This document shows positions 38,063 to 43,268 of a DNA stretch of 64,000 nucleotides, one piece after another. Source of the DNA: Escherichia phage vB_EcoS_ESCO40; the sequence record NC_106514.1; one strand, 5' to 3'. Position 1 is the stretch's first letter. Each line of letters opens with the position of its first letter. A program made the position numbers and the translations under genes. The notes under the pieces are model-generated. The model did no database searches, was not told the origin of the DNA, and saw nothing but the letters and a program-made list of their open reading frames with translations.

Positions 38063-38098
38063 AAACCCCAGTGGACAAAATCCGCTGGGGTTTCTTAT
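38063..38098 (+). terminator. terminator-like stem-loop closing the early plus-strand block
   Basis: AAACCCCA / TGGGGTTT 8-bp stem with internal loop, then CTTATTA. Confidence 0.5.
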
Positions 38099-38441: not shown

Positions 38442-40121
38442 TTACTTCTGTACCATTAGATTGACCAGTTCTCTGAGTTCAGCCAATTCAGCTTTCATCT
38501 CAGCCAACTCCCTATCCTGCTCCTGTACCACTGCCACGATATCTGCTAGTATCGCACGATCGTTCAGGTTGAGCATTCCAGACATGCTACCGGAAAACGC
38601 GTAAATCTCATCCGCTTCTTTAGCTTCCTGAGCAACAAATCCGCGATCTTTGCGCCCATCTGATAGCCATTCAAACTCACGCGCAACAAGGCGGTTAATA
38701 CGGTCACGTGGGGTGTTGCCTTCCGTATTGGTGGTGTCTGTGATCTTGTCTTTGAGGCGACGATCTGAACCGCCAGGTTGGATAAGGCCTAAATTAGTGT
38801 CGATACATGAATTTTCCCATTTAAACGCCCAATATTTATTACCTCCTACGGCTCTATTAATATTTAGTTGTACGGCTCTAAATTGTGTATTACCTTCACG
38901 TATGCCACCAAATTCCCACCTATCGTCATACCAATGACCACGAATAATATTTACATAGGTATTACCTTCGCTACTAGGAGTAACATTGAAAAACTCGATG
39001 GCATTGGGTTCTCCTGTATTACCTACGAAAAAACCACCTCTCCCTGGTACTGTTACCACACCAATTGAGTTAACAGACATTACCTCCCGCAACGTACCTT
39101 CTTGTCCTTTTACTTCTAGTGCAGAATAAAAATCTGTCCCAAAAAGAATCTTGGTACGCAATTGTGAGACATATGCTTCCGCGCCAGCAATATTGTATAC
39201 AGATCGCACAGCACCGCCATAGGCCATTACGCCGTTAGATGGACTTGTCGCATCACCATTAATAACACTCCACGAGGTATTCGCAGCCACGAACCCCCCA
39301 GAAGCACGGATTACCCAGACGCCGACAAAGTTTCGTGTAAGGATTTCGTCCCTTGATGCCCCGTAGATAGGGCTTGAGCGTGAGGCGTCAAAATTTAATG
39401 TATTATAGCGCCCAGCTACTGCAATATTTCCTGTACTTGGAATTGCATCCCCATCCCCATTAGGAAAAATCGCATTATCAACAAAGAAAGCACCGCTAGC
39501 AGCAGAACCAAATACCTGAGCGTAACTACCCCCTGAGTAACTAGGAACAGCAGCAGTAATATTAGGCGCAGCGGATTCAAATAGCTGGCCATTTGCACCA
39601 CTATTCCCACCATCACCACGACCGTAGAGAGCACGTATTGATCCTTGTTGCACACCGTTCCTATCTGGCACACGGAAAGTAGTTGTACCGTCACCCAATG
39701 AGTATCTGCCACGCTGAAATTTATCTGCTAACCAAACTGAATCATCTATAGCCCCAACCATTTGTGCATACGCCCAAAGTTCAGGCCAGTCAGCCCTATT
39801 AAGAAGCTGTCCGTCAGAAACGACTTCGTATGGTTGAATATACGCACGACTATCTCGAAGGTGGAAATCACCAACACCGTAATTCATAACACCATTCATA
39901 GTGGGACCGACTGTACCGGTGTTAATCTTATTCTCTACCCAACGTTTAGTTGCGGCATCATAGTCCCCAACAGGATCCCCCGCAAGAGGGGTGGACCCAA
40001 TAGGACGCACATTTAACCATGCTGCTGCACGGTCTGCAAGATCGGATAAATTGTTGTTTTTATCCATCTTTTCGTCTTTAAGTTTTGTAATATCCTGGGG
40101 GATATTAGTATAAGTAGTCAT
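38442..40121 (-). CDS. distal tail-fibre protein with C-terminal intramolecular chaperone (S74-like) domain
   Basis: 559 aa; N-terminal NNLSDLADRAAAWLNV fibre-attachment-like motif; C-terminal ...GGSDRRLKDKI... chaperone-type domain with coiled-coil end; strong AAGAGGTGA site. Confidence 0.7.
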   Translation of the reverse strand: MTTYTNIPQDITKLKDEKMDKNNNLSDLADRAAAWLNVRPIGSTPLAGDPVGDYDAATKRWVENKINTGTVGPTMNGVMNYGVGDFHLRDSRAYIQPYEVVSDGQLLNRADWPELWAYAQMVGAIDDSVWLADKFQRGRYSLGDGTTTFRVPDRNGVQQGSIRALYGRGDGGNSGANGQLFESAAPNITAAVPSYSGGSYAQVFGSAASGAFFVDNAIFPNGDGDAIPSTGNIAVAGRYNTLNFDASRSSPIYGASRDEILTRNFVGVWVIRASGGFVAANTSWSVINGDATSPSNGVMAYGGAVRSVYNIAGAEAYVSQLRTKILFGTDFYSALEVKGQEGTLREVMSVNSIGVVTVPGRGGFFVGNTGEPNAIEFFNVTPSSEGNTYVNIIRGHWYDDRWEFGGIREGNTQFRAVQLNINRAVGGNKYWAFKWENSCIDTNLGLIQPGGSDRRLKDKITDTTNTEGNTPRDRINRLVAREFEWLSDGRKDRGFVAQEAKEADEIYAFSGSMSGMLNLNDRAILADIVAVVQEQDRELAEMKAELAELRELVNLMVQK

Positions 40122-40131
40122 TGATCACCTC

Positions 40132-40398
40132 TTATGCCCATTTGCGTACATCAGGATTCTTAATAATGAATTGTTCGATGTCTGACAAGTCTATATTATC
40201 TCCTACTATCCTTATATTTATGTAATAACCTTCTTTACCAATAATAGCAGGGGTTTTACTTTTAGGGTCGTCTACCACAGGGATAAAACCAATTTCATCT
40301 ATAAACACGTTACCGTAGTTTGTCTTAAGCCACCCACTATCAACGACAACATCCAGATAATGTTTTTCATCCTTGAATTGTAAATTAATATCTTTCAC
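40132..40398 (-). CDS. hypothetical 88-aa protein between the two fibre genes
   Basis: in frame with the upstream 815-aa ORF and separated by a single TAA; GTG start immediately after that stop, GGGAGA 8 nt upstream. Confidence 0.35.
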   Translation of the reverse strand: MKDINLQFKDEKHYLDVVVDSGWLKTNYGNVFIDEIGFIPVVDDPKSKTPAIIGKEGYYINIRIVGDNIDLSDIEQFIIKNPDVRKWA

Positions 40399-42846
40399 TT
40401 AAACTTTCTCCCGCATTTGACTATCTGTTAATACTCTATTCCATATTCTAAGGTTACGAATATGACCATACAATTTAGTTGAATCTGAAAGTCTACCGCC
40501 TATTTCTACTAGTGCGTCCGCGTCCGTTCCTTTCCATGTAAAACCGTGTGAGGTCTCACCCCTATTACCATTAACAAACGAGGTGACCTCTACATCGCCA
40601 CGGAGAATAAAACCAAATACATGTGGAGAAAATTGTTTTTCAAATGAATAACCTCTGGACAGTATAGTTGATCCATCCTCAGTTACCACATACGTGTAAG
40701 GTGTAACGGAGGTTCTGTCAAATTCCGCAACAAATGCTTTTCCTCTTACGAAGTAGTGGTTGTTATCCACTATCATTGGGTATATATTATCTAAGTGAAA
40801 GCTATCCCAGTTAACACTTACCTCAGCAAGTAATGAAATATTTGTCCCGAAGAAATTATTCCTTGCTGGTATAGTAACATAGTCTAGAGCCCTTGTTGCA
40901 GGCGTGCTTCCCGTAATAATGAAGGAGGATGCACAAAAACCCTTTTCAAATTGCGGGTTACAAAATGATATTTCATCCCCAACTTGTAAAGGCTGACCAT
41001 CCACCCGACAATAATTCACCGAACCAATAGAATTTCCGCCAATCTCCACAAATTTACACATAGCTTCAACTTTCAACCATCCGTTGTCTTCTCTATATAT
41101 TCTATGTGCTATAGTCCCGCTCCCTTCTACTACAGAAGAAATTTCGCCGGTTCCGCAACTTATGACAGATCTAGCGCCGAGAATAAGTCCTCCGTCCTCA
41201 CCTACTAAATAAAATTGAGGGGTAATATAGATATCCTGGCCTGCTTTTACTCGTATGGATAAAGAGACATATTCATTTTTCTGACAGTTAATCGCATTTG
41301 CTGTTTCACAATAAAATAGGTTTGGCGTATCACCTTGACCATTTTGGTTTACAGTTGCCGTTGTGTATGTAAAACCATACTTATCAACACCATATGTAAC
41401 ATCGATACGATGTCTATCCGTATTTAAAGAAGCCGGGTCGTTACTGAAAGTAATGTGATTTGTCCTCTGCCCTTCAATCAAGAGTCCTTGCTTTTCAAAT
41501 CTAGGCTCATCGATATTGGCAATACAAAACTCACCGTGTTTGTTTATATATGTTGCATTTGATGCGCGGGAGAAACTGACAACCTTATCCGAGGGCATTG
41601 TAATAACATCTTCACCAACTGTTATTTTCTTGTATCCTGGCGAGTAACCTGCAAGCATATCAAGCGAGTCATTAAAGGGAATCCATACGTCAGGGAATGG
41701 TTGAAGATCCGGAGCCCTGTTAGCTGCAATTTCCGCACGGTCTGCTTCTGCTTTTGCACGGTCTGCCTCTACTTTAGAGCTATTTGCACTACCAGCAGCA
41801 TTGCTAGCTTGTTGCCCGGCCTCAACAGCACTATTACCTGCTTGTGTAGCAGAAGCAGCAGCTTGGTTTTTTAAAGTTGTTGTCTCAGATACCGCGCTAT
41901 CCTTAATACCTTGTGTATCTGTTTTTAATTGCTCAACCTCTGCTTTTAAAGCTGTTGTCTCTGTTACAGCACTATTTTTAATGGCCTGGGTATCAGATTT
42001 TAACTGTTCGACATCCGCTTTTAAAGCTGTTGTCTCTGTTATAGCACTATTTTTAATGGCCTGGGTATCAGATTTTAATTGTTCAACATCTGATTTAAGT
42101 CCTTGAATAGTAGTTACAGATTGGTTGGCGGAGGCTGCAGACCCTGCCGCATTAGTTTCGCTAGCCTTAGCTTTTGTTTCCGAGGTTTTTGCATTGGTTT
42201 CAGAGATTTTTGCCGCAGATGCCGATGCAGCAGCTTGCCCAGAAAATATTTCCGCCTCATTCCTAAAACCGCTAGAATCAGCTGCTGATTGAGCTGCATT
42301 AGTCTCACTGACCTTTGCATTACCCTCGCTAAGTTTTGCATCAGTAGCTGATTGAGCTGCATTAGTCTCACTTGCCTTTGCATTAGTCTCACTAATTTTT
42401 GCAGCAGCAGCTGATGCGTCAGCATTAGTTTCACTAGTCTTCGCATTAGTTTCACTAGTCTTCGCATTAGTTTCACTAGTCTTCGCATTAGTCTCGGATA
42501 TTTTAGCTGCGGCAGCGGACTCTGCAGACTTATTGGCTGACGCTGCGGACTGAGTAGCAGAGGTAGCAGACTGAGTAGCAGAAGCTTCTGAAGCTCCAGC
42601 AGAAATAGCAGCTTCCTGTTCAGAGTTCTTAGCATTAAGCTCTGAAGTCTTAGCTGCTATTTCAGAATCTTTTGCAGCCGCAGCAGACTTAGCAGCGGCC
42701 TCTATAGAGGATACTAACTCATTAGCAGTAATAGAGCTAATAGAATTTCCAAGAGTTACTGTGTATCTAGGAAATTTACTAGCAGTAGCTTTAGTATCAT
42801 CAATATTTAATATTTGTTGTACAATAATCTTAGTAGTTATTGCCAT
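40399..42846 (-). CDS. ltf: proximal L-shaped tail-fibre protein (LtfA-like) with Ala/Ser/Thr-rich tandem repeats
   Basis: 815 aa; repeated SETNAKT heptads and three ~25-aa repeats (DVEQLKSDTQAIKNSA.TETTALKA); position after the baseplate genes. Confidence 0.65.
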   Translation of the reverse strand: MAITTKIIVQQILNIDDTKATASKFPRYTVTLGNSISSITANELVSSIEAAAKSAAAAKDSEIAAKTSELNAKNSEQEAAISAGASEASATQSATSATQSAASANKSAESAAAAKISETNAKTSETNAKTSETNAKTSETNADASAAAAKISETNAKASETNAAQSATDAKLSEGNAKVSETNAAQSAADSSGFRNEAEIFSGQAAASASAAKISETNAKTSETKAKASETNAAGSAASANQSVTTIQGLKSDVEQLKSDTQAIKNSAITETTALKADVEQLKSDTQAIKNSAVTETTALKAEVEQLKTDTQGIKDSAVSETTTLKNQAAASATQAGNSAVEAGQQASNAAGSANSSKVEADRAKAEADRAEIAANRAPDLQPFPDVWIPFNDSLDMLAGYSPGYKKITVGEDVITMPSDKVVSFSRASNATYINKHGEFCIANIDEPRFEKQGLLIEGQRTNHITFSNDPASLNTDRHRIDVTYGVDKYGFTYTTATVNQNGQGDTPNLFYCETANAINCQKNEYVSLSIRVKAGQDIYITPQFYLVGEDGGLILGARSVISCGTGEISSVVEGSGTIAHRIYREDNGWLKVEAMCKFVEIGGNSIGSVNYCRVDGQPLQVGDEISFCNPQFEKGFCASSFIITGSTPATRALDYVTIPARNNFFGTNISLLAEVSVNWDSFHLDNIYPMIVDNNHYFVRGKAFVAEFDRTSVTPYTYVVTEDGSTILSRGYSFEKQFSPHVFGFILRGDVEVTSFVNGNRGETSHGFTWKGTDADALVEIGGRLSDSTKLYGHIRNLRIWNRVLTDSQMREKV
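41867..42091. repeat. tandem 75-bp direct repeats (about 3 copies) inside the fibre gene
   Basis: GCTTTTAAAGCTGTTGTCTCTGTTA(C/T)AGCACTATTTTTAATGGCCTGGGTATCAGATTTTAA... repeated with period 75. Confidence 0.8.
42422..42484. repeat. tandem 21-bp direct repeats (3 copies) inside the fibre gene
   Basis: GCATTAGTTTCACTAGTCTTC x3, encoding (T)SETNAK heptads. Confidence 0.85.
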
Positions 42847-43268
42847 TATCTAGTTACCCCATCACTGATAAATACTTTACCCTCCATTATACGAAAAGAG
42901 CTAATAGCTGATCCTATGACATCTCGTGTCATAATTATATCATAGTATCCTGCAAAACGTTGGCGAGGGTTATACTTATCTCTCTCTTTGGTAGCTTTTT
43001 CACCAATATTATCTACCGCCTCTACAGGTAAACTTATAGCTATGGCACCCTGAGCAGCATCAATAATTTTAGTAGTAAAAGATGCCAAAGTTTCCGCATT
43101 CTCATCAAGCCCGGCCTTTATAGTACCCCTTAGGGAATACCCTGTTAAGTTAACAGGGGTATTTGTAGGTGGATAAGTACTATCATCAACATCTAAGAAT
43201 TGCATCATTAGACCATAAGGTACTTTCTCATCTATCACTAAGTCTATAACTCTATTTTCAGTACTCAT
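42846..43268 (-). CDS. small tail-tip/collar protein
   Basis: 140-aa ORF between pb4-like and fibre genes; size and position match the T5 collar protein. Confidence 0.5.

Follow-up and report, generated by a model that had tools for sequence, protein, structure and literature searches.

An AKFV33-type three-gene lateral tail fibre locus in Escherichia phage vB_EcoS_ESCO40, with a small gene that reads as independent of the fibre gene it abuts

Lateral tail fibres set the O-antigen types to which a T5-like phage adsorbs, so their architecture matters for host-range prediction and for engineering. In the stretch of Escherichia phage vB_EcoS_ESCO40 analysed here (NC_106514.1, 64,000 nucleotides (nt), hereafter the window), the lateral tail fibre locus raises the question of how many polypeptides it makes. 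An open reading frame (ORF) for a proximal fibre of 815 amino acids (aa) ends at a single TAA, an ORF of 88 codons follows directly in the same frame from a GTG, and the gene of a 559-aa distal fibre comes next. The first-pass annotation had listed these three ORFs, which are all present in the ORF list, and had described their in-frame joint, which can be read directly in the sequence; from that joint it proposed either stop-codon read-through or a recent nonsense mutation. Neither proposal held. Judged from its sequence and that of its relatives, TAAGTG is a zero-spacer stop-start junction, at which an independent small gene is initiated at GTG from its own Shine-Dalgarno (SD) sequence, and the locus is an ordinary AKFV33-type three-gene lateral tail fibre locus. 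Phage AKFV33 does not carry the T5 Ltf and has two fibre proteins, ORF137 ("ltpA") and ORF135 ("ltpB"), with the hypothetical ORF136 between them (Niu et al. 2012, PMC3326045). The result is chiefly negative: no recoding takes place, and a matching locus has been sequenced many times before.

The junction reads ...ATG CGG GAG AAA GTT TAA GTG AAA GAT..., and two ORFs separated by a spacer of zero nucleotides are in frame automatically, so that the arrangement is uninformative by itself; for adjacent ORFs generally, the chance of an in-frame relation is 1 in 3. In a survey of 68 loci with a small-protein homologue, we found that TAAGTG is limited to those whose small protein is at least 94% identical, in phages NBEco002, AKFV33, FFH_1 and phiAPCEc03. 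The junction is TAA-A-ATG in SelmaRatti (small protein 86% identical), which places the small gene in the +1 frame; it is TAA, 10 nt and ATG in a group with 58% identity, and an ATGA overlap (-1 frame) in every member of a group with 25-36% identity that takes in T5-like phages, Nonagvirus, lambdoid phages and prophages. An alignment with the fibre loci of other T5-like phages had been proposed as a check on the in-frame junction, and this survey indicates that it is not conserved. The small gene starts at the same MKD/MRD codon in all 68 cases, with an SD-like sequence ahead; the start codon is GTG within the TAAGTG group and ATG in every relative with another junction, from SelmaRatti outwards, and AAGGAG, AAGAGG or GGGAG is present at the matching position in every relative. 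A sequencing error at the junction was also considered and rejected, as four other independently sequenced phage genomes have the identical junction.

The small gene also has the properties of a gene of its own. The ratio of nonsynonymous to synonymous substitution rates (dN/dS) is 0.07-0.24 in informative close pairs, and in the comparison with the 58% group synonymous sites are saturated and dN is about 0.29; by these substitution patterns the gene is under purifying selection. A profile search returned 251 clusters with members of the family, nearly all of 85-99 aa and free-standing, and among these roughly 250 clusters no homologue fused to a fibre was found. Longer "homologues" of 123-150 aa were examined as possible fusions and rejected, being frameshifted, mis-started or disrupted entries. 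A HMMER search of the full library with the small protein returned only 5 representatives and neither fused nor annotated relatives, and in Pfam the protein has no match, the tail-fibre assembly families (Caudo_TAP/Tfa) included. Its AlphaFold2 (AF2) model, with a predicted local distance difference test (pLDDT) score of 89, is an alpha/beta sandwich, for which no informative structural neighbour was obtained: Foldseek against BFVD returned only uncharacterised phage proteins of 80-105 aa, and no structural match to known fibre chaperones was found. The literature search found no study of the small protein or of the joint, and the paper on PH204/SP76 was set aside as a source on this locus because its subject is pb3 and pb4. 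Between the small protein and ESCO40_00132 of Escherichia phage vB_EcoS_ESCO40 identity is 100%, and in the phage collection the whole locus shares 89-91% DNA identity with those of NBEco002 and AKFV33, where the three genes are annotated likewise.

Programmed or leaky read-through of the TAA would turn part of the proximal product into an 815+88-aa fusion, a second isoform of the fibre, and the two ORFs, in frame and without spacer, would allow it; we regard this as very improbable. The frame is lost in SelmaRatti, in the 58% group and in the distant relatives, so that the in-frame relation is confined to the closest ones, while the small ORF carries its own initiation signals, is under apparent purifying selection and has only free-standing homologues. 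No tRNA gene was found within the window, and the 23 tRNAs of AKFV33 include none for a stop codon, which leaves no ochre suppressor in either set. Besides, translation in E. coli terminates efficiently at TAA with a G after it, and acidic coiled-coil proteins rich in Ala and Ser often migrate slowly on SDS gels. The latter bears on an observation that speaks for a fusion: the ORF137 band of AKFV33 ran at 95.8 kDa, compared with 83.1 kDa calculated and 93.3 kDa for a hypothetical ORF137-ORF136 fusion, and the junction peptide is too short for detection in the mass spectrometry (MS) data of that study (PMC3326045). Slow migration of an acidic (isoelectric point about 5), Ala/Ser-rich coiled coil is the likelier cause of the displaced band; its coverage was 57%, and the 33 listed peptides are all from ORF137, the last one corresponding to residues 774-781, with none reported from ORF136 (PMC3326045, Table 3 and Table S2). 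Even less probable is a recent nonsense mutation by which one ancestral fibre gene became the 815-aa and 88-aa ORFs. Coding sequence in frame directly after a single stop is what such an event would leave, but in all homologues from four phage groups the small gene stands apart, with a start and an SD sequence of its own and mostly in another frame, which makes the split ancient and universal. Furthermore, the C-terminus of the upstream protein, ...LTDxQMxExV, is kept at the same point in all relatives, and the fused version that a recent split would imply is found nowhere among the clusters mentioned above.

All features of the locus lie on the minus strand (Table 1). The stop of ltfC and the ATG of the proximal fibre gene overlap by 1 nt, and a gap of 10 nt separates the small gene from the distal one, which has the strong SD sequence GAGGTGA before its start; because the junctions overlap, abut or nearly abut, with SD sequences, the four genes form a tightly coupled operon. 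A promoter and terminator scan gave no signal above chance inside the fibre operon, and the single convincing terminator is found past the distal gene at 38063-38093, where the dUTPase and fibre operons converge. A GC-rich hairpin of 13 bp with a T-run after it makes up this likely terminator, and the equivalent intergenic region of AKFV33 (orf135-orf134) is annotated with bidirectional terminators.

Table 1. Features of the lateral tail fibre locus, in positions of the window.
Feature	Position	Strand	Basis or remark
ltfC, collar protein anchoring the lateral fibre	42846..43268	-	Pfam PF23926 LtfC, E 8e-15; PHROG 34807 ("collar tail protein for L-shaped tail fibre attachment")
Proximal lateral tail fibre, 815 aa, LtfA-like, AKFV33 ORF137 homologue	40399..42846	-	ORF list; PHROG 1419, E 8e-223
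Ala/Ser-rich heptad coiled-coil shaft, residues about 40-385, containing all tandem repeats	41692..42729	-	protein sequence
21-bp heptad array, SETNAKT-type, 9.6 imperfect copies	42295..42495	-	Tandem Repeats Finder (TRF), 69% matches
75-bp x 3.0 tandem array, three 25-aa units LKxDVEQLKSDTQAIKNSAxTETTA	41869..42096	-	TRF score 316, 84% matches
Further 21-bp x 2 array	41735-41775	-	TRF
Lectin-like C-terminal head module, 433 aa	40402..41700	-	GTA_spike_fiber, near-threshold Laminin_G_3, Foldseek
Shine-Dalgarno GGGAG of the small gene	40408..40412	-	9 nt upstream of GTG, within the last proximal codons
Stop-start junction TAA-GTG	40396..40401	-	TAA 40399-40401 directly abuts GTG 40396-40398
Small protein, 88 aa, PHROG 1361 (function unknown)	40132..40398	-	GTG start 40396-40398
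Distal fibre, 559 aa, AKFV33 ORF135 homologue	38442..40121	-	PHROG 6921
N-terminal 15-residue motif MTTYTNIPQDITKLK of the distal fibre, putative docking tag	40077..40121	-	comparison of downstream fibre genes
Intramolecular chaperone Peptidase_S74	38445..38768	-	Pfam PF13884, residues 452-503 of 559, 31 bits against a cut-off of 22

The proximal protein begins as a T5-like fibre that is anchored through LtfC. Its residues 1-211 match residues 1-225 of DT57C LtfA (PDB 8hqz, 8hqz_d, E 1e-33), residues 3-191 match the T5-pb1-type PHROG 24369 (E 2e-48), and ltfC lies directly upstream. The structure of the DT57C fibre has the N-terminal part of LtfA threading into the LtfC collar, with a trimerising helix that starts at T40 (PMC10713586), and the AKFV33 homologue ORF137 is a virion protein by MS (PMC3326045).

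The shaft that follows carries the DNA repeats. The three copies of 75 bp given in the first-pass annotation were confirmed, whereas its three copies of 21 bp were an understatement of the longer array that TRF delimits (Table 1); the core of that array is formed by three perfect TSETNAK heptads, and the overlapping stretch 42279-42457 is also read by TRF as 63 bp x 2.8. The suggestion that these repeats alter fibre length is borne out in nature. Compared among the window and six relatives, as had been advised, the repeat number is not identical: the window has a proximal protein of 815 aa with nine SETNA motifs and three 25-aa units, which is also the composition of phiAPCEc03 (815 aa, nine and three), with NBEco002 at 815 aa, seven and three; FFH_1 at 816 aa, seven and three; AKFV33 at 784 aa, five and three; IrisVonRoten at 796 aa, eight and two; and SelmaRatti at 537 aa with neither motif nor unit. 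In SelmaRatti (locus L002, 2655-4268) residues about 51-328 are gone, a deletion of 278 residues with Ala-rich sequence flanking its junction on either side, which corresponds to the whole coiled-coil shaft (compare window 41860-42700); hardly anything separates the anchor from the head there, and neither the small gene nor the distal fibre is damaged, the tag being identical.

The head closes the proximal protein, in which Pfam detects neither Peptidase_S74 nor another intramolecular chaperone. NCBIfam GTA_spike_fiber is found at residues 456-653 of the protein (49.2 bits against a cut-off of 36). Searched with Foldseek, the confident core of the head model resembles tandem galectins, neurexin LNS pairs, the botulinum neurotoxin (BoNT) Hc, pentraxins and CBM40, and also two Pseudomonas phage baseplate fibre proteins; the model, which is of low confidence, is consistent with a carbohydrate-binding jelly roll, for which these resemblances count as weak support. 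The module occurs in 2477 homologous clusters behind several N-termini, lambda-Stf-type PF08400, PF12571 and PF03406 among them. A separate observation concerns phi37, a T5-like Salmonella phage, in which Ltf residues 468-556 are the site of clustered host-range mutations and evolution in mice yielded a deletion, A56-A97 (PMC12541327). If the phi37 Ltf is of the present type, the mutations would map to the GTA_spike_fiber domain and the deletion to the repeat-rich coiled coil, and if this mapping holds, the head would be a true O-antigen-binding site.

The distal fibre can be aligned collinearly with DT57C LtfA 508-1073, at 45% identity and with few differences over residues 16-130, and with DT57C LtfB 206-531 (59.5% identity), and is 89% identical to AKFV33 ORF135. 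A variable tip occupies about residues 330-450 and is followed by the chaperone, for which GGSDRRLKDKI at residues 450-460 had been taken as the sign; the C-terminal chaperone-like domain so proposed is a Peptidase_S74 above the Pfam cut-off. Autocleavage is predicted before S452 (GG|SDRRLK), on the basis of a conserved cleavage motif described in PMC4728585. The N-terminus is the other conserved part: of the 55 downstream fibre genes that we compared, 54 match MxTxTxIPxDIxxL and the remaining one (L113) has the close variant MASLTVIPDDIKTLK. This tag persists even in distal proteins that are otherwise unrelated, such as those of JenP2 (Nonagvirus) and KarlBarth (Dhillonvirus). KarlBarth (locus L069, 3732-4880) has the same head, tag and an 85-aa small gene (hhalign probability 99.8%), and the annotation of its distal part shows two short genes, 98 and 196 aa long, which may reflect a frameshift or a true split.

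The association of head and small gene was followed beyond the T5-like phages. Eighty viral contigs were fetched by the head module alone, and in all 78 with sufficient downstream sequence an ORF of the small family comes directly after the stop of the head-module fibre. The gene after it was tallied in 94 non-identical loci: in 54 it is a fibre starting MxTxTxIPxDIxxL and in one more the variant just mentioned, and in about 37, mostly E. coli prophages and lambdoid phages (mEp460), a hydrophobic protein of about 97 aa takes the place of the distal fibre. The latter protein (MDISPLLHALCAVAAQ...; L004 5292-5579 and L029 from 4292) lies at the prophage edge, possibly as a moron or an exclusion protein. 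Head, small gene and tagged distal fibre form the same trio in Tequintavirus, Queuovirinae (Nonagvirus JenP2) and Dhillonvirus, and its presence in three phage groups points to a mobile cassette. DNA similarity to the phages BRET, SA126VB and phiG7, of about 60 kb, is confined to the C-terminal half of the proximal gene, the small gene and the N-terminus of the distal gene, which indicates that these elements move together. A few loci have truncated fibre genes, probably as decayed or mis-assembled copies: the downstream ORF is only 64 aa in L015, and the upstream ORFs are 56 and 242 aa in L030 and L051, with the small gene intact.

Taken together, we consider it probable that the locus is an AKFV33-type operon of four translationally coupled cistrons that gives four separate polypeptides, assembled around a joint as follows. 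By sequence and comparison, the proximal fibre has the conserved T5/DT57C-type N-terminal anchor, which threads into the LtfC collar; a coiled coil, whose length varies through gain and loss of repeats; and the head of about 430 aa, which has no chaperone of its own. The distal fibre, corresponding to the distal half of DT57C LtfA, ends in a Peptidase_S74 chaperone that is predicted to cleave itself. The head may form a portable joint with the small protein and the first 15 distal residues, in which the small protein would bind or mature the lectin-like head, as its obligate partner, and the distal fibre would plug into the head/small-protein complex through its MxTxTxIPxDIxxL tag. A fibre of this make would be articulated or branched and could have as many as two sites for glycan binding. 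The small protein probably assists in its building or joining. Besides the displaced gel band of AKFV33, several points weigh against the joint. The head model has low confidence (pLDDT 58), and Laminin_G_3, at residues 742-810, scores 26.8 bits, just below its cut-off of 27.6; the place of the small protein in the virion and the three proposed contacts are ones that we infer; and the roughly 37 of 94 loci where no distal fibre follows imply that the small protein is not solely an adaptor for it.

How the small protein acts leaves room for several explanations. As a tentative proposal, somewhat short of an even chance, it could be a structural adaptor which, together with the lectin-like head, makes a universal socket for any distal fibre tagged with MxTxTxIPxDIxxL, in a cassette exchanged among T5-like phages, Queuovirinae, Dhillonvirus and lambdoid phages. 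It is slightly less likely, in our view, that the protein is a non-structural, Tfa-like assembly chaperone of the head, which would stay outside the virion and take no part in distal docking. Its gene has the position that tfa has after stf in lambda, with no other gene there in the lambdoid loci examined, it follows a head that lacks an intramolecular chaperone, and it does so at each of the 78 loci whether a distal fibre is present or not. Additionally, the protein is absent from the four AKFV33 virion proteins identified in excised gel bands, a weak negative (PMC3326045). Retention of the gene without a distal fibre, with purifying selection persisting there (median dN/dS 0.32), favours a role for the head itself; yet dN/dS is 0.12 where a distal fibre is present, and this apparently tighter constraint, seen in few genes, hints at an extra interface. 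The chaperone explanation has also to meet the lack of similarity to Pfam tail-fibre assembly families and of structural matches to known fibre chaperones, and the fact that in cross-family transfers the small gene travels with the distal N-terminus. A fibre branched as in DT57C, with the distal fibre attached to the proximal shaft or base and the head free as a second receptor-binding tip, seems to us unlikely. The branching of the DT57C LtfA/LtfB fibre is genetically supported (PMC4728585; PMC10713586), the head combines a carbohydrate-binding-type fold in its low-confidence model with a domain related to the head-spike fibre of gene transfer agents (GTA), and it occurs without a distal fibre in many prophages. 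However, the proximal protein has no phiEco32 gp14-like region of the kind proposed to dock LtfB, and the distal N-terminus is unlike that of LtfB or gp15. Also, SelmaRatti has lost the shaft and retains head, small gene and a distal fibre whose tag is identical, so that the anchor, the head or the small protein must hold whatever docks the distal fibre. In the reading that we prefer, the joint of head, small protein and tag, the tag would dock the distal fibre onto the complex of the other two.

The multi-gene architecture is already known. Two modest points can be added to what was described before: a widespread small protein that would be the obligate partner of one head type, and an N-terminal tag common to the distal fibres of the cassette. 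If the docking joint is real, distal fibres could be swapped between phage families by retaining the tag, which would be usable for fibre engineering.

The comparison with known fibre systems places the locus among the AKFV33-type ones. It has a fibre with a lectin-like head, a gene of about 90 aa of PHROG 1361 and a distal fibre starting MxTxTxIPxDIxxL, in the same gene order as in NBEco002, FFH_1, phiAPCEc03, SP15 and SelmaRatti; the small protein is 94-98% identical in NBEco002, AKFV33, FFH_1 and phiAPCEc03, 86% in SelmaRatti and 81% in SP15. With respect to AKFV33 there are small differences in heptad number (815 vs 784 aa) and in the distal tip, and none in kind. In T5 itself, the L-shaped fibre was given in the first-pass annotation as a single polypeptide of about 1400 aa, which agrees with the 1396-position PHROG profile and with PMC4728585. 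The variant architecture that it saw relative to T5 is real, as a multi-protein L-shaped fibre, and was already described (PMC3326045, PMC8594841), the lateral fibres of T5-like phages and small siphoviruses being given in the BASEL paper as "a single large polypeptide or 2 (or more) separate proteins" (PMC8594841). T5 pb1 (Ltf) shares the homologous N-terminal part of about 190 residues, the position between ltfC and the dUTPase operon, and a C-terminal intramolecular chaperone on the receptor-binding polypeptide. In contrast to its single chain of 1396 aa, three gene products share the function here, and Peptidase_S74 is absent from the 815-aa protein and sits on the separate 559-aa one.

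DT57C and DT571/2 (Golomidova 2016; Ayala 2023) share the N-terminal anchor and the LtfC collar, and their LtfA and LtfB contain parts homologous to the distal fibre, the S74 chaperone included. Anchor and fibre body are one polypeptide in DT57C, whereas here the fibre body is a separate gene with a different N-terminal tag, and DT57C LtfA is in effect the fused version. By BLASTP the proximal protein matches only LtfA 1-205 and 191-226, without S74, and the distal protein aligns to LtfB from residue 206, its own N-terminus aligning to internal LtfA rather than being gp15-like. The second fibre of DT57C docks through regions like phiEco32 gp14/gp15, while the present anchor protein has a lectin-like head at its end, and no small gene is annotated between ltfA and ltfB, where one intervenes in the present locus. 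The lambda stf-tfa type of side fibre is represented by the Stf-like fibres of mEp460-type lambdoid phages and E. coli prophages. Prophage Stf-like proteins with the PF08400 N-terminus carry a head about 37-42% identical to the 433-aa head, and a small gene is translationally coupled directly downstream, as here; it has this position in 78 of 78 loci, with stop-start overlap or abutment. Compared with lambda Tfa, the small protein is about half the size and is not a Caudo_TAP/Tfa member, and a further fibre gene follows it in many loci. Finally, the long tail fibre of T4, gp34-gp35-gp36-gp37 with the chaperones gp38 and gp57, is likewise an articulated assembly of several proteins, among them a small one at the joint, and its dedicated assembly factors are encoded in the same operon. 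It serves here as a working analogy only, no relationship in sequence or fold having been detected.

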